Source: a plasmid. From it: a stretch of DNA of 64,000 nucleotides. The stretch is from the sequence record NZ_CP023785.1; one strand, written 5' to 3'. A program made the position numbers and the translations under genes. Shown here piece after piece: positions 6,834 through 63,900 of the stretch (within the stretch, counting starts at the first letter, position 1; each line of letters begins with the position of its first letter). The notes beneath the pieces are model-generated. The model saw nothing but the letters and a program-made list of their open reading frames with translations, made no database searches and was not told the origin of the DNA.

Positions 6834-7003
6834 AAAAAGCGACTCCTTAATTTTGTTTAAGAAGTCGCTTTTCCAATTACATTTGCGAATATATATCTTG
6901 AAGAATAATCTTAAATCGTTTAATATCAAGATATACAATTAAGAAACAAACATCGACTGTTTATTTTGCTCACAAACTTTGGTCGGGGAGTGAGCGACTT
7001 CTT
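6834..7003 (-). promoter_or_regulatory. rep leader with pT181-type transcription attenuator: terminator hairpin (6835-6844/6863-6872) that sequesters the SD aaggagtc just 5' of the ATG, plus upstream preemptor aagaagtcgct (6992-7002) complementary to the 5' arm
   Basis: Complementarities read directly from sequence; arrangement corresponds to the countertranscript-driven attenuation described for pT181. Confidence 0.45.
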
Positions 7004-7070
7004 ATTTTTATTTTGTTATTAATATAACACTAACAAAAGACTTGGTCTAATTAGATCAAGTCTTTTTTAG
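6933..7070 (+). ncRNA. candidate antisense copy-control countertranscript (promoter ttgaag-N17-taatat at 6897-6925, ends at terminator 7038-7069)
   Basis: Promoter and terminator read from sequence; orientation opposite to rep leader. Confidence 0.3.
7038..7069. terminator. bidirectional rho-independent terminator aagacttggtct-aatt-agatcaagtctt + TTTT
   Basis: 12-bp stem with one G-U pair, T-run on plus and A-run upstream. Confidence 0.5.
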
Positions 7071-33419: not shown

Positions 33420-33530
33420 ATACTATTATAACATATTTATTTTTAGTTACTACCAAAAAAAAGATATATATGTACTACCTTATAATTAATAAGGAAAAGG
33501 TAGTACATAAATAAGGAAAAGCTGAAATAT
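33420..33530. repeat. iterons upstream of parA (tagttactacc; inverted pair tgtactacctta ... aaggtagtacat)
   Basis: same GGTAGTA motif as the large array at 62.3-63.9 kb. Confidence 0.5.
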
Positions 33531-58846: not shown

Positions 58847-58974
58847 CCCATAGATATATTGGACTTCCTCTTTTAAAACACAAAAATAAATACTACCTTA
58901 TTTAGGTAGTATTTATTAAAAGTTACGTCAATTTTGATTAAAAATATACTACTTGAACCTCTCATGAGTAAAGT

Positions 58975-59247: not shown

Positions 59248-59565
59248 TTAAAAGCCTAGTTTCATTTGTTTAGATTGGAAAATACGTCCTACAAGTATCT
59301 CTTTTTTTTCATGGTCGATCCGATAAAATAAGGCATAGCTTTTGCCGATCACGATCCGATATGTTGGGATATCCATTCCATAGATTTCGGAAACTTCCTC
59401 ATGCATAGTTGGAAAATTTTTGGTTAGTTCTAAAGCCTTCTGGATCGCACCTACAAATCTTTTTATGCTGGCTGGAGAAAGAGCAAGCTCATTTTCCCAT
59501 TCTTCTATTATCGTTTCAAGGCTGGTCTGAAAACTTTTAGAATAAACTAGCGTGTACTCTTTCAT
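59248..59565 (-). CDS. RelE/ParE-superfamily toxin (105 aa)
   Basis: ParE-like N-terminus YTLVYSKSFQTSLETI, C-terminal ...YRIDHEKKEILVGRIF. Confidence 0.65.
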   Translation of the reverse strand: MKEYTLVYSKSFQTSLETIIEEWENELALSPASIKRFVGAIQKALELTKNFPTMHEEVSEIYGMDIPTYRIVIGKSYALFYRIDHEKKEILVGRIFQSKQMKLGF

Positions 59566-59820
59566 CTATTCACTCCAGCCGTATTTTCCGAAAGCTTTTA
59601 CCATTTCAATTTCTGAAACTGTTAAACCTTTCTCAAAGTCTTGGAAACTTTCTTCAATCAATTTGCGATCGTGTTCTTTTGCTATTTGAGTAGTATCTAA
59701 TATGAATAAGTTGTCTTCTTGTTTGGCTTGGATAATGTCTCCGCTTTTTAATCCAAGAGAGCTTGGAAGGATCACTCCCACGCTATTGCCGATCTTTCTA
59801 ACCTTTAGTTCTTTTCCCAT
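59566..59820 (-). CDS. AbrB/MazE-fold antitoxin (84 aa)
   Basis: KVRKIGNSVGVILPSSL swapped-hairpin motif; perfect 16-bp palindrome ttataacatgttataa at 59857-59872 upstream (operator). Confidence 0.65.
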   Translation of the reverse strand: MGKELKVRKIGNSVGVILPSSLGLKSGDIIQAKQEDNLFILDTTQIAKEHDRKLIEESFQDFEKGLTVSEIEMVKAFGKYGWSE

Positions 59821-60178: not shown

Positions 60179-60583
60179 ATGGAATTAGATACAAATAATC
60201 ATTCAGTATTTCTTCTTTATTACCACCTTGTTTTAGTAACGAAATATCGTAGACAAGTGATTGATGATGAAATATCTGATTATGCCAAAACTACTTTTGA
60301 AAGAATTTCAGAATCGTATCACATTACTTTAGTGGAGTGGAATCATGATAAAGACCACGTTCATATTATGTTCAAAGCTCAACCTAAAACAGAATTGACA
60401 AAATTCATCAATGCCTATAAAAGTGCCAGCTCAAGATTGATAAAACGTGACTTTCCAAGAGTCAAACAATTTCTTTGGAAAGAAATGTTCTGGTCTAAAA
60501 GCTTTTGTCTTCTGACAACTGGTGGCGCACCAATTGATGTGATTAAGAAGTATATCCAAAATCAAGGAAACAATCATAAATAG
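60179..60583 (+). CDS. tnpA: IS200/IS605-family Y1 transposase TnpA (134 aa)
   Basis: HuH motif HVHIMF, catalytic Tyr region. Confidence 0.85.
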   Translation: MELDTNNHSVFLLYYHLVLVTKYRRQVIDDEISDYAKTTFERISESYHITLVEWNHDKDHVHIMFKAQPKTELTKFINAYKSASSRLIKRDFPRVKQFLWKEMFWSKSFCLLTTGGAPIDVIKKYIQNQGNNHK

Positions 60584-60590
60584 AAAGTAG

Positions 60591-61748
60591 GTGAACTTTA
60601 TGGAACAACTAAAAGCATACAAATTCAGAATCTATCCAACAGAGGAACAAGAAATCTTCTTTGCCAAATCTTTTGGTTGTGTCCGTAAGGTCTACAATCT
60701 AATGCTTGATGACCGAAAAAAGGCGTATGAAGAAGTTAAAAATGATTCTTCTAAAAAAATGACTTTTCCGACACCAGCTAAATACAAGAAAGAATTTCCG
60801 TTTTTGAAAGAAATTGATAGCCTTGCTTTAGCCAATGCCCAACTTAATTTAGATAAAGCATACAAGAATTTTTTTCGGGATAAATCCGTTGGATTTCCAC
60901 GTTTCAAAAGTAAGAAAAATCCTGTTCAGAGTTATACAACGAATAATCAAAATGGTACAATTGCTTTGATTGATAGTAAATTCATCAAAGTTCCTAAATT
61001 GAAGTCATTAGTAAGAATTAAGCTTCATAGACAACCAAAAGGGATTATCAAATCTGCTACAATATCACGTCATTCTAGCGGTAAATACTATATTTCTTTG
61101 TTGTGTAAAGAAGAAATTATCGAATTACCTAAAACTAATTCCACAATTGGTATTGACTTAGGTATTATGGACTTTGCGATTCTTTCTGATGGACAAAAAA
61201 TTGATAATAATAAATTCACGTCCAAAATGGAAAAGAAACTAAAGCGTGAACAACGCAAATTGTCTAGGCGTGCTTTATTGGCTAAAAATAAAGGTACCAA
61301 TCTATTTGAAGCTAAAAATTATCAAAAACAAAAACGCAAAGTAGCTAGATTGCATGAAAAAGTAATGAATCAACGTACTGATTTTCTGAATAAGTTGAGT
61401 ACAGAAATGATCAAAAATCACGATATTATCTGTATTGAAGACTTAAACACAAAAGGTATGTTGCGAAATCATAAATTAGCTAAAAGTATTTCTGATGTTT
61501 CTTGGTCAAAGTTTGTGACTAAATTACAATACAAGGCTGACTGGTATGGACGAAAAATCATCAAAGTAGATAAATGGTTTCCGTCTAGTCAGATTTGTTC
61601 AGAGTGCGGACATAAAGATGGCAAGAAATCTCTTGAAATTCGAGAATGGACTTGTCCTGTTTGTCATACTCATCATGATCGTGATATCAATGCTAGTATC
61701 AATATTCTGACCGAAGGTCTAAGACTACATTCTATGGGATTGGCTTAG
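60591..61748 (+). CDS. tnpB: IS605-family TnpB (RuvC-like + zinc finger, RNA-guided nuclease family; 385 aa)
   Basis: C-terminal [11 protein letters not shown]...[18 protein letters not shown]. Confidence 0.85.
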
Positions 61749-61984
61749 ATCCAATCATCAAGAACCGTAGGAACTACGGGGATAGCTTGGTAAATAAGAG
61801 ACACCGCTGTTAGTAAAGAAATACGCTATCAAGTATGCTCTATTCCCAAGAAGCTCCCACTTCAAGCGTTAAGAACCGTCAGGTTTAGCTAAGTGGTGAG
61901 TAGTTCACGTAGGTATTTTTATTATATATAGATTTAACATATGTCGGTCGGTTGATTGATATAGCTAAAGTTATAACTCAACCG

Positions 61985-62206
61985 AAGCCGATTCATCTAC
62001 ACGAATAAAGTTGCGAGTGTTCTCGGCTAATTCATAAAAATTGTTATGTGTTCCATATAGCAATACTGGAATAACTTTATTTTCTTGAATCTCATAAGCA
62101 ACTCTATACACGGTGACCGCATACTTAAATCCATTAGACCAATTACCTGATAAACCTCCAGTTTTTTGCTCTTACTTAAATGGATCAATGGCAATTTCAT
62201 CACAAA
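61985..62206 (-). pseudogene. diverged RelE-like toxin paralog (of 33670-33957) with internal stop and 5' truncation by an inverted IS605 LE-like sequence (62207-62245)
   Basis: ~75% nt identity to 33690-33870; TAA at position equivalent to Pro-Tyr; abutting cctatagaggatgagtgacttctgcctaatt. Confidence 0.55.
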
Positions 62207-62493
62207 CCTATAGAGGATGAGTGACTTCTGCCTAATTACGTTAAAAAATATTGAAAGTAACTCTATGTAGCAAAAAATATCTAGAATTTCATTTCCTCAA
62301 AACTGATCGATATTGTATCTAAAAATATATACTACCTAAAATAGGTAGTATATATTAAAATATGTGCTTTTGTTAGAAAAATCAATACATAAATTATCAT
62401 ATCTGTATATGTCATTTAGGTATTTCAGTTATGTTATAATAGTTTTGCTGTCTGCTACCCCGGCCTAATCTGGCAAGGGGAGGAGGAGATATA

Positions 62494-62613
62494 ATGAAAT
62501 ACCTTTTTGATTTTGTTTTTGCAATCAAGCCACTTGCAGATGTAGTGTGCAGTTACCTCTGCAAATGGCTTGATTGCAAAATTGCCAAAAAAGACAGTAA
62601 GCCTACCCGTTAA
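62494..62613 (+). CDS. Fst/Ldr-like type I toxin peptide (39 aa: MKYLFDFVFAIKPLADVVCSYLCKWLDCKIAKKDSKPTR)
   Basis: RBS ggaggagg 7 nt upstream, extended -10 tgttataat at 62432-62440, hydrophobic helix with Pro and ..Y..WL.. followed by charged tail; bidirectional terminator downstream. Confidence 0.55.
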   Translation: MKYLFDFVFAIKPLADVVCSYLCKWLDCKIAKKDSKPTR

Positions 62614-62632
62614 TTCTATAATATAGAAACGT

Positions 62633-62697
62633 AAAAAAAACCCCATCAGCCTGCACGCTGATGGGGTTTGGTGATATAATGAAATACCTCTTTGTTA
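62633..62697 (-). ncRNA. candidate antitoxin RNA (RNA II-like, ~65 nt) from promoter ttgcat-N16-tacaat (62704-62731, minus strand) to the shared terminator; contains the reverse complement of the direct repeat gatataatgaaatacct and is therefore complementary to the toxin translation-initiation region
   Basis: direct repeat at 62488-62504 and 62673-62689 either side of terminator; promoter read from sequence. Confidence 0.45.
62641..62664. terminator. bidirectional terminator ccccatcagc-ctgcac-gctgatgggg flanked by A8 and T-rich tracts
   Basis: 10-bp GC-rich perfect stem. Confidence 0.65.
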
Positions 62698-62859
62698 CTC
62701 ATAATTGTACCATAATTAGTCACGAATGCAACCAATAGAAAAAACTACTTAGAACGGTAGATCATCGCTAATAACAATGCATTGTCCACCAAATGGATTT
62801 TGTGAAGCATTAAATACATTGTTATTAATTGTCGCTGCTTTTAACTAGGCCTCTCCCCT

Positions 62860-63900
62860 TCTATTATAAAAGAAGATATATATCATTTCTTAATTACCTA
62901 CTACCTTAAACCAAAATTTAAGTACTACCTAATTTAAGTATTACTTAAACAATCTAAAAAATAGTTATCCCAATTGTTATGCTTTTATAATACGATTATT
63001 TGTAACAAAATGAATATTATATAATTAAACACTACCATATTTAGGTAGTGTTTAATTATTAGCAAAACAAAAAATATTTATTCTATTCTCTTAACTTCAA
63101 CTAAGTTATGCTGCACACCTTTATATAAATCATATGCAACTCATTAGCTAGACAAACTACAAGCATGTAGTTTTATCTGTTAATTATGTACTACCTAAAT
63201 AAAGTAGTTTATAATTAGCAAGTATATATATTTAAAAATTTAAGATTAATTTTTTTATGACTTGTACAAATTTATCTGATATTCTCTTATTAAGAACTAC
63301 CTAATTTGGGTAGTTCTTATTTTTTACATTTTAAGTAGTATTTAATTGCAATTTGGTAGTATTTTTTTATTATCTTATTCTTAGAACGGTAGTACTTAAT
63401 ATAAATATAGGTAGTATCTAATTTAAGTATTAATGGTAGTATCTAAATTAACAGGTAGTATGTAACTACTTTAAAGTAATTTTTTTCAGATTAACACAGT
63501 AGTATCTTATTAAATAAGTTAATTTTAATGGTAGTACATAATTATTATATATATCTGACATTGGTAGTACTTATTGTATTTTTTAGTAGTATATAATCTA
63601 TTGTTTTCTAGCCTAAAGCCTTGTCTTATAAGAATAATATAATATATACTACTGAAATAAGGTAGTATATATTACTAGTAATGGTAGTATGTTTTATATG
63701 CATAAGGTAGTTCTTAATTTATTTTTTGTTTTGACACTGGTAGTACTTAATTATCTTTAATTTTAAAACTAAATTTTATTCATACGTTTTTCTGGTAGTA
63801 TTTAATTATAAATAATATTTATTTAAAGTAGTTCTTAATGACTTTAAAGGTAGTACATAATTCATTTTATTTCTGATTTTAGGTAGTATTTAATTAAAAA
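62860..63900. repeat. array of >25 iteron-like repeats (G)GTAGTA(C/T) / TACTACC, many as inverted pairs separated by a few bp, in very AT-rich DNA
   Basis: e.g. tactacctaaaataggtagta (62330-62352), cactaccatatttaggtagtg (63031-63053), ggtagtatctaatttaagtattaatggtagtatctaaattaacaggtagtatgtaactac (63410-63470). Confidence 0.7.

Follow-up and report, generated by a model that had tools for sequence, protein, structure and literature searches.

The locus described here raises a simple question: does an unannotated stretch of plasmid DNA, close to a replication gene, encode a toxin that is held silent by an antisense RNA? The elements concerned lie at 62432-62731, on both the plus and the minus strand, within a stretch of 64,000 nucleotides (nt) of the sequence record NZ_CP023785.1 (hereafter the window, to which all coordinates refer unless another record is named), carried by a RepA_N megaplasmid of Enterococcus faecium. 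An earlier note, made from the letters alone, had recognized in this region the RNA I/RNA II layout of the par locus of plasmid pAD1. The analysis presented below makes it highly probable, on comparative sequence evidence, that the region is indeed a par-type type I toxin-antitoxin module. All the elements listed in the note are present, with small refinements of their coordinates, and the layout is conserved, with covariation, in about 50 homologous loci. The mechanism is conventional. The locus is new and essentially unannotated, it is widespread in clinically relevant plasmids, and the palindrome inversion found within its toxin gene is unusual. No description of the E. faecium locus or of the motifs of its peptide was found in the literature searched, a body of work that did not extend to key older papers and supplements.

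Two predicted convergent RNAs and their conservation

The toxin RNA (RNA I) would be transcribed on the plus strand from an extended -10 promoter, TGTTATAAT, located at 62432-62440 and accompanied by a weak -35 element; to judge from the sequence, transcription would start around G62447. Most related loci have a comparable extended -10 at 50-66 nt (77 nt in one of them) before the start codon. The predicted RNA I, of about 225 nt (62447-62672), carries a strong Shine-Dalgarno sequence (SD), GGAGGAGG, at 62479-62486, 7 nt before the ATG of an open reading frame (ORF) of 39 amino acids (62494-62613, plus strand) encoding MKYLFDFVFAIKPLADVVCSYLCKWLDCKIAKKDSKPTR. Most related loci likewise have an SD of the GGAGG/GGGGG type in the 20 nt that precede the start codon chosen for them. 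The ORF is followed by an intrinsic terminator that is shared by both strands (62633-62672) and consists of an A-run, a GC-rich stem of 16 bp (62638-62669) and UUU. The terminator scan calls this hairpin on the minus strand, the stem being followed on the plus strand only by UUUGGUG.

The antitoxin promoter faces this terminator from the other side. It spans 62704-62731 on the minus strand and is composed of TTGCAT (62731-62726), a spacer of 16 nt and TACAAT (62709-62704), with a TG upstream of the -10. The product, RNA II, would be a small RNA (sRNA) of about 66 nt (62631-62696, minus strand, with ends deduced from the promoter and the terminator) made of a 5' tail and the terminator hairpin. 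Both predicted sizes agree with those of the earlier note, about 200 and 65 nt. A simple promoter scan listed neither promoter, since their -35 or -10 scores are weak under its rule; the credibility of both is supported by their position and by their conservation in the family, not by the scan.

The two RNAs are linked by a direct repeat. Its copy A (62485-62509, plus strand) covers the 3' end of the SD, the start codon and codons 2-5, and would be the target of RNA II; its copy B (62670-62694, plus strand) is found just past the terminator and, when transcribed from the minus strand, provides the 5' tail of RNA II. The copies are 25 nt long and 92% identical, and of their two mismatches, one is turned into a G-U pair when the RNAs form a duplex. 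The 17-mer noticed earlier, GATATAATGAAATACCT, forms the exact core of this repeat at 62488-62504 and 62673-62689. A division into two separate blocks (DRa plus DRb) was not recovered: the repeat is one block split by mismatches. The predicted fold of RNA II (-26.5 kcal/mol, z = -5.6) leaves its 5' tail largely unpaired, and this tail forms with 62485-62509 a duplex of 24 bp with one A-A mismatch (-32.2 kcal/mol). Through the terminator, complementarity is complete between the 3' portion of RNA II and the 3' end of RNA I.

A first line of support comes from Rfam. The family RF02442 (SpF66_sRNA) matches 62454-62680 with 53.3 bits and an E value of 3.9e-11, above its gathering score of 42 and over the whole model (1-239 of 239), and the match was reproduced in a scan of the entire window at the gathering threshold. 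The same family matches 10 of the 20 related loci tested, a copy from Streptococcus mitis reaching 115 bits. F66 is an RNA of 239 nt, confirmed by Northern blotting and located between SP2168 and SP2169 in Streptococcus pneumoniae TIGR4. It forms with F67 the tandem pair srn502/srn503, F67 being annotated as part of a Fst-family type I system, and in strain D39V the genes SPV_2447-2450 are listed as Fst-family type I toxin-antitoxin pairs.

A second line of support is given by the comparison of related loci. These were collected with a back-translated peptide pattern scanned against one genome per species, which yielded 59 loci; with the window and two plasmid loci added, 52 non-redundant loci were retained for the family counts. 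They originate from Enterococcus, Streptococcus, Granulicatella, Lachnospiraceae, Ruminococcus, Selenomonas and Veillonella. A cognate repeat, shared by the start-codon region and the sequence found 50-110 nt past the stop codon, is present in 51 of the 52 loci, and its sequence is specific to each locus: the median repeat score is 14 for cognate regions, versus 7 for non-cognate ones and 7 for shuffled ones (maximum 11). On this match/mismatch scale the window scores 19, whereas 1040 shuffles of the regions downstream in the 52 loci reach 11 at most. The minus-strand promoter beyond the second repeat copy, scored at 9 or more matches out of 12, keeps its position in 47 of the 52 loci; it is TG-extended in most, and its -10 generally ends 7-13 nt before the complement of the repeat. 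All 49 distinct loci possess, between the stop codon and the repeat, a hairpin of -13 kcal/mol or better whose stem differs from locus to locus, with an A-run before it in 43 cases and a T-rich tract after it in 43. In a homologue carried by a Lactococcus plasmid, both repeat copies have changed together and the antisense promoter is a perfect TTGACA-17-TATAAT. The sequences of the repeats and of the terminator stems vary while their positions are kept, a pattern that is produced by selection for RNA-RNA complementarity and that excludes chance and neutral duplication. The simple tandem duplication that the earlier note had mentioned as a possible origin of the repeat accounts neither for this covariation nor for the constant position of the antisense promoter. 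As far as sequences can tell, this comparison shows a broad clade of HY[IL]CKWLD peptides, spread over Lactobacillales, Clostridia and Negativicutes, with the full par-type RNA architecture and peptides that fall below current Fst profiles.

The fold predicted for RNA I is very stable, with a minimum free energy (MFE) of -88.3 kcal/mol (z = -8.1). In its leader, a predicted stem-loop (62449-62491, plus strand) pairs the 5' end and a C-rich tract with the SD region, an arrangement by which, according to the earlier note, CCCC (62458-62461) and GGGG (62477-62480) would occlude the SD. Both tracts are present, and for 23 out of 23 distinct family leaders the MFE structure pairs the SD with leader sequence upstream of it. 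The isolated leader (62448-62510, -19.9 kcal/mol), in which the GGGGAGGAGGAGA region is paired to the 5' end and to CCCC, nevertheless reaches a z of only -1.9, and the mean pairing probability of the SD, 0.73 versus 0.58 in mononucleotide shuffles, does not establish the occlusion, because these shuffles retain the C-rich tract and discriminate barely. RNAalifold predicted no consensus structure from a MAFFT alignment of 22 leaders, which are too heterogeneous to be aligned. The modelled occlusion of the SD by the leader is suggestive only. A second helix of the MFE structure joins the 5' end of RNA I, CUGUCU (62448-62453), to AGACAG (62592-62597, plus strand), within the region encoding the tail of the peptide. 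Compensatory variants of this helix are found in the family (UGUCGG/CCGACA, UGCCUC/GAGGCA and UGCUUG/CAAGCA), and the cognate pairing is stronger than the mean non-cognate one in 26 of 28 loci, with modest z values for individual loci (mean -1.36).

An additional element was considered and rejected. An inverted copy of 10 nt of the start-codon repeat (AGGTATTTCA, 62418-62427) could have silenced read-through transcripts. This copy falls within the promoter region, and a paralogous locus described below keeps nearly the same sequence despite a different start region, without covariation; it is probably a coincidence.

The following scheme can be proposed from these elements. The extended -10 promoter, presumably constitutive, would produce an RNA I encoding a membrane-type peptide of 39 residues. 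This RNA would be intrinsically poorly translated because of its extensive folding: the tail-coding region captures the 5' end, the SD is engaged by the leader, and a long hairpin takes up most of the ORF. The convergent promoter would produce RNA II, whose 3' half would pair with the terminator of RNA I and whose largely unpaired 5' tail would pair with the 3' end of the SD, the start codon and codons 2-5; pairing at both sites would block ribosome binding. By analogy with par(pAD1), RNA II would be the less stable of the two RNAs, and the loss of the plasmid would abolish repression and lead to the death or the arrest of the cell, a behavior that would confer on the module a plasmid-stabilizing role.

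A small peptide encoded in a palindrome

In the peptide, a moderately hydrophobic helix leads into CKWLD and from there into a charged tail. The ORF is kept in the 52 loci with a length of 24-39 codons (47 in one locus, where the start call is uncertain), and the insertions and deletions that distinguish the homologous ORFs are all in frame. The earlier note had attributed to this peptide the Fst/Ldr pattern. This assignment holds for the C-terminal part: after W25, 7 of the 14 residues of the tail LDCKIAKKDSKPTR are charged, which corresponds to the Trp-plus-charged-tail signature of Fst/Ldr. It does not hold for the helix motif P/D/S/TxxxG, reported in the majority of these toxins (Weaver 2020, PMC7472228). 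Indeed, the window peptide has P13-LAD-V17 and D16-VVC-S20 at the corresponding spacing of the P/D/S/T-xxx-G(C) motif, and no Gly at all; many of its relatives carry S-V-x-A-G, which fits SxxxG. Two further signs retained by the note, a Pro in the helix and the string SYLCKW, are not family features: the family motif is HY[IL]CKWLD, and both signs have a local origin that is detailed below. Protein databases are uninformative in this matter because the ORF is rarely called by gene callers. A search with the peptide plus one residue retrieved 3 proteins only, and an exhaustive search of representative proteins gave 9 matches, several of them being spurious long proteins. Toxicity of the window peptide can be anticipated, by analogy, from its pneumococcal homologue.

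The most singular property of this small gene is its own secondary structure. The cores of 35 family ORFs, aligned on their codons without gaps, were submitted to RNAalifold, which predicts two helices. The outer one pairs the (I/L)-S-(V/I) codons with L-D-(R/G/S), and the inner one pairs A-(G/E)-(I/V)-(V/A) with H-Y-(I/L)-C. Double compensatory changes occur at 8 of the 17 pairs. The cells of the hairpin are paired in 95.8% of cases, versus 85.3% in column shuffles (none of 500 reaching the observed value) and 32-49% after a shift of the partners by 1-3 columns; for covariation, the score is 0.448 versus 0.246. Since these helices covary, the toxin gene is a coding quasi-palindrome, and on the evidence of this alignment much of the conservation of the peptide is shared with that of the RNA structure. 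In the family, the hairpin is interrupted by a bulge of 9 nt that encodes K-W-L, the most conserved part of the peptide.

In the window, this quasi-palindrome has become a near-perfect hairpin of 28 bp (62517-62581, plus strand), detected both by repeat search and in the fold of RNA I. Two changes separate it from the family. The first is an insertion of two codons, Lys-Pro, within AAGCCAYTT (Lys-Pro-Phe or Leu; window 62524-62532), found only in the megaplasmid lineage of E. faecium, E. durans and E. lactis. AAGCCAYTT complements the AARTGGCTT codons of K-W-L and fills the bulge, giving the continuous helix of 28 bp. An allele devoid of this insertion (…FAILAEVAAHYICKWLD…) is carried by a plasmid of E. 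faecium from the honey-bee gut (L005, NZ_CP083180.1), and the insertion looks, from its sequence, like a templated extension of the palindrome. The second change is an inversion. The 65 nt of 62517-62581 are the exact reverse complement of the corresponding segment of E. durans and E. lactis (L006, 2524-2588, and L007), with no difference in this orientation and 13 differences when read forward. The window allele …PLADVVCSYLCKWLD… is therefore the in-frame inversion of the consensus-like …PFAEVTAHYICKWLD…; the family consensus AEVTAHYIC is turned into ADVVCSYLC and six residues of the helix are changed. Among plasmid records with at least 99% identity, 218 carry the flipped allele and 111 the unflipped one. 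Recurrent flipping of the hairpin, in the manner of a phase variation, was considered and is not supported: a comparison of 14 plasmids over about 3.9 kb places every one of the 8 flipped alleles in one flanking haplogroup, for which a single inversion event suffices.

The inversion and the Lys-Pro insertion together explain the SYLCKW string (a product of the former), the Pro of the helix (brought by the latter) and a spurious ORF of 63 codons on the minus strand (62455-62646, FAIKPFAEVTAHYICKWLDCK), which is annotated in CP063612.1 as a hypothetical protein in place of the real ORF and was rejected as a mirror-image artefact of the palindrome. It is conceivable, albeit rather doubtful, that the hairpin is a functional part of the switch, for instance a translation lock or an RNase III site, and that the palindrome was remodelled in two steps, a templated extension of 6 nt and then a precise in-frame inversion that rewrote six residues with the RNA structure unchanged. 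If so, mutation driven by palindromes would offer type I toxins a route to new peptide variants that leaves RNA control intact, and toxicity or target could differ between the two alleles. The covarying hairpin and the inversion allele constitute, in any case, a clear example of overlapping RNA and protein constraints in a very small gene.

Several observations weigh against the presence of a working par-type module in the window. The loci of the family were found by a peptide pattern, so that the search itself accounts in part for the invariance of YxCKWLD. The alignment to Fst-family profiles that the earlier note had suggested as a check gave a negative outcome: the window peptide matches neither Pfam Fst_toxin (PF13955) nor NCBIfam type_I_tox_Fst (NF033608), with E values up to 10 allowed for these Fst models, nor the Ldr profile, while Fst of pAD1, used as a positive control, obtains 34.7 bits with NF033608 and 22.8 bits with PF13955. 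The best hydropathy over 19 residues is a moderate 1.49, below the 2.24 of pAD1 Fst, and D6, K12 and D16 fall inside the putative helix. The U-tract of the plus strand is short, which makes the 3' end of RNA I uncertain. The -10 of RNA II is weakened, TACAAT replacing the TATAAT of the other alleles examined (L068, L070 and L071); as inferred from this comparison, it is a derived single-nucleotide change that slightly weakens the antitoxin promoter. The literature searched yielded no measurements of expression, toxicity or stability, be it for this locus or for any copy in E. faecium. Finally, the inversion removed from the window allele the His-Tyr motif of the family; with this loss and the weakened -10 of RNA II, the allele could be attenuated.

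This last point leads to the alternative that survives best, although it is an unlikely one: the module would be genuine and the window copy an attenuated or dead allele, in which the six altered helix residues and a helix of 28 bp blocking translation have disarmed the toxin, and which persists as a pair of RNAs or by hitch-hiking beside repA. The replaced consensus, the derived -10 of RNA II and the lineage-specific continuous helix, found where the rest of the family has a bulge, would fit this possibility, as would the contrast between a peptide without any profile match and relatives that in some cases reach below-threshold scores. Yet the ORF, the SD, the repeat, the terminator and both promoters are intact, and no decay is seen in the 218 plasmid records in which the flipped form is kept at 99% identity or more. 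Moreover, the changed residues are still hydrophobic or small, the Trp and the charged tail are untouched, and the flipped peptide is more hydrophobic than the unflipped one (1.49 versus 1.06).

A second alternative, far less probable, would make of the plus-strand RNA a non-coding regulatory sRNA, as the name SpF66 sRNA implies, with an incidental ORF and an antisense RNA that sets the level of the sRNA. Rfam does classify RF02442 as a gene of the sRNA type, the ORF is almost never called by gene callers, and its conservation coincides so largely with the covarying hairpin that selection at the RNA level could explain part of it. It would be difficult to understand, however, why a strong SD closely precedes the start codon in most loci, why indels respect the reading frame, and why the most conserved part of the peptide is precisely the K-W-L bulge, which is unpaired. 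In 51 of the 52 loci the antisense RNA targets exactly the SD and the start codon, which is sensible only if translation matters, and the pneumococcal ORF is toxic when expressed (Fozo et al. 2010). The preferred reading remains that of a toxin-encoding par-type module.

The plasmid setting and a second copy

A query of 401 bp covering the module found matches in 442 plasmid records, 438 of them from Enterococcus and mostly E. faecium megaplasmids of 130-320 kb; many of these records are clinical isolates, and the annotation found under the match is usually "none". In plasmid p1 of Aus0085 and in other records, the gene order comprises a ParE-family toxin gene and its small neighbor, ISEfa4, the module, about 1.2 kb of repeats and the RepA_N initiator gene, the neighboring genes being confirmed by Pfam. 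Some 1.3 kb separate the module from the downstream repA, in a region rich in iterons: of the 29 GGTAGTA copies in the window, where 3.6 would be expected, 19 fall within 62330-63888. With repA and the iterons adjoining it, the module therefore sits in the maintenance region of the plasmid. Most of these GGTAGTA/TACTACC iterons, which we take to resemble the TAGTARRR iterons of pAD1-type replicons, are located between the module and repA; others are observed at 33448-33505 and 58891-58911, and one palindromic pair is found directly upstream of the module (62330-62350).

The module also occurs in other contexts, beside ssb, on streptococcal contigs of 5.5 kb and on contigs of up to 597 kb, and it must therefore be autonomous. 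RepA_N plasmids use antisense RNAs for copy control, and the module does lie in the iteron-rich region upstream of repA, but the idea that its repeat is a neutral tandem duplication, or that its minus-strand RNA serves the replication control of repA, is the least credible of all, given that the repeat covaries in 51 of the 52 loci, many of which are not next to any rep gene, that RNA II runs away from repA and stops at the toxin terminator (an orientation which, with the occurrences away from rep genes, led to the rejection of antisense control of repA), and that the plasmid of strain NRRL B-2354 has the same module at the same place in a different upstream context.

A paralogue of E. faecium, 80% identical, is located beside ssb on other plasmids and on many megaplasmids (L002; NZ_CP041258.1, 3001-3357). 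Its repeat copies, GGTTATAGGTTTGAAAATTCTTTTTG and GGTTATAGATTGAAAATTCTTTTTG, differ from those of the window, GGAGATATAATGAAATACCTTTTTG and GGTGATATAATGAAATACCTCTTTG, in that both were replaced by the same different sequence; its terminator stem shows compensatory changes and its antisense promoter is TTGCAT-16-TATAAT. The repA-linked and ssb-linked types are found together on several megaplasmids, such as NZ_LR135395.1, NZ_CP018066.1 and NZ_CP065778.1. The duplexes modelled between RNA II and the start region amount to -30.9 and -28.8 kcal/mol for the cognate pairs of the two paralogues, and to -10.9 and -12.7 kcal/mol for the cross pairs. As the cross duplexes are far weaker than the cognate ones, the two systems are predicted to be orthogonal, a property also reported for par(pAD1) and par(EF0409) (Weaver 2020, PMC7472228).

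These results mean that the module, accompanied on many of the same plasmids by a second, presumably orthogonal copy, is present in more than 400 sequenced plasmids and is almost never annotated. Megaplasmids of the pLG1 type carry fitness and resistance traits in hospital-adapted lineages of E. faecium. They are widespread in this species, including many clinical isolates among the matched records, and the module, hidden until now, is a candidate contributor to their stable inheritance and could offer a way of curing cells of these plasmids. To recover the HY[IL]CKWLD clade, a protein profile made for it would serve, as would a covariance model of wider scope.

Other features of the neighborhood deserve mention. 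Downstream of the module, an ssb 3'-end remnant (…NPFGGQCIVISDDLPF*) occupies 62749-62845 on the minus strand, cut short by a stop codon upstream; its homologue is the intact ssb adjacent to the paralogous module, which suggests, from sequence, that the module moved along with a piece of ssb. Upstream, an ORF fragment of 46 codons (61971-62111, minus strand) matches only the C-terminal portion of Pfam's ParE-like_toxin family (25.5 bits, cutoff 28); it is a likely pseudogene. The ParE-family toxin gene found 2 kb further up, next to a small upstream partner, is intact (59248-59820, minus strand). Between this pair and the module, ISEfa4 (60179-61890), an IS200/IS605 element with tnpA plus tnpB, is missing from some plasmids, including that of NRRL B-2354. 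Directly past tnpB, a weak match to Rfam Ref70 (32 bits, cutoff 115) may be a candidate TnpB guide RNA. Elsewhere in the window, ctRNA_pT181 of Rfam scores above its threshold at 6933-7017 on the plus strand (59.5 bits versus 56), which suggests a replication-control RNA of the pT181 type. Two records labelled as Listeria phage, OR847552.1 (2.5 kb) and OR849365.1 (1.8 kb), carry the Enterococcus module with 96.8% identity, in its unflipped allele by mismatch count; they look like mislabelled or contaminant fragments.

Relation to known type I systems

A resemblance is observed with the enterobacterial hok/sok and ldr/rdl systems, in which an antisense RNA also represses a small membrane toxin and the toxin mRNA is kept inactive by long-range pairing between its 5' and 3' regions. 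Ldr shares with the window peptide the signature of a Trp followed by a charged tail (Fozo et al. 2010). The antisense RNA of these systems is however encoded opposite the 5' part of the toxin mRNA, unlike the convergent promoter found here beyond a shared terminator. The type I toxins of Clostridioides difficile (NCBIfam NF047374, CD_typeI_toxin) are, like the window family, small hydrophobic peptides with charged tails under antisense control. This profile has weak matches to 15 of 36 family peptides (best 23.5 bits, E 5.5e-05, for a cutoff of 60, over profile positions 1-31 of 51) and no match to the window peptide.

The other profiles give a similar picture. The NCBIfam Fst model scores 8 of the 36 family peptides at 15-18 bits, below its cutoff of 26, over the whole profile; Ldr_toxin of Pfam has weak matches to 7 of the 36; and the alignment of the family to pAD1 Fst by hhalign is in register with a probability of 44% only. 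In its proposed function the peptide resembles an Fst. Short of an established formal membership, the best description of the family, from its sequences, is that of a divergent HY[IL]CKWLD clade within the Fst/Ldr superfamily as Fozo et al. understand it. Because the peptide is beyond the reach of curated profiles, the NCBI pipeline names the canonical Fst on E. faecalis plasmids and leaves the window ORF blank.

At the level of RNA organization, the similarity to par(pAD1) of E. faecalis (fst/RNA I/RNA II; PMC7472228) is extensive. Both loci have convergent promoters and a shared bidirectional terminator, and in both a DNA direct repeat is read in opposite directions, RNA II being predicted here to pair, as in pAD1, with the SD and the start codon of the toxin. 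RNA I measures, here by prediction, about 225-230 nt, its 5' end is tied in a helix (the predicted CUGUCU/AGACAG helix corresponding to 5'-UH), and the stem-loop suggested at 62449-62491 would place a leader structure over the SD, as an analogue of 5'-SL. The encoded peptide is small and combines a hydrophobic helix with a charged tail, LD being preceded by an aromatic position, and both modules reside in the maintenance region of a RepA_N enterococcal plasmid. The two loci also differ. The pair DRa/DRb of pAD1 is represented here by one contiguous repeat of 25 nt, RNA II would reach about 66 nt instead of the 40 nt or so quoted for pAD1, and the net charge of the tail is +3 in the window peptide versus -3 in Fst. 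No YUNR U-turn was seen by eye in the terminator loop (CUGCAC in RNA I, GUGCAG in RNA II), a motif that is not universal among par homologues (Weaver 2020, PMC7472228). Finally, the window ORF lies within a long conserved hairpin and its peptide goes undetected by Fst profiles.

The pneumococcal loci Fst-A and Fst-B complete the comparison. They were predicted in the SP2168-SP2169 interval by exhaustive PSI-BLAST, and Fst-B proved toxic in Escherichia coli (Fozo et al. 2010). They are chromosomal, arranged in tandem and situated between fcsR and adcA, in contrast to the window locus, which is single beside the repA of a plasmid and has its diverged second copy elsewhere on many of the same plasmids. 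The window peptide also differs by its longer tail (KIAKKDSKPTR), by the Lys-Pro insertion and by the inverted hairpin, and the window scores 53 bits with RF02442 where the S. mitis copy scores 115. Homology of the RNAs is nevertheless above the Rfam threshold over the full model, and it extends to the peptides. The translated Rfam consensus, approximately MSLILELVLTIIADVIAG...FVCKWLDGKE with D-V-I-A-G included, has the CKWLD motif in common with the window peptide. An acidic residue is also shared by the helices, D16 here and there the DxxxG that is ascribed to one clade of pneumococcal toxins (Weaver 2020, PMC7472228). The antisense RNAs correspond as well, since the RNA of 65-75 nt detected by Northern blotting in S. 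pneumoniae opposite the 3' end of fst-B (Fozo et al. 2010) has its counterpart in the 3'-overlapping RNA II of about 66 nt predicted for the megaplasmid module.

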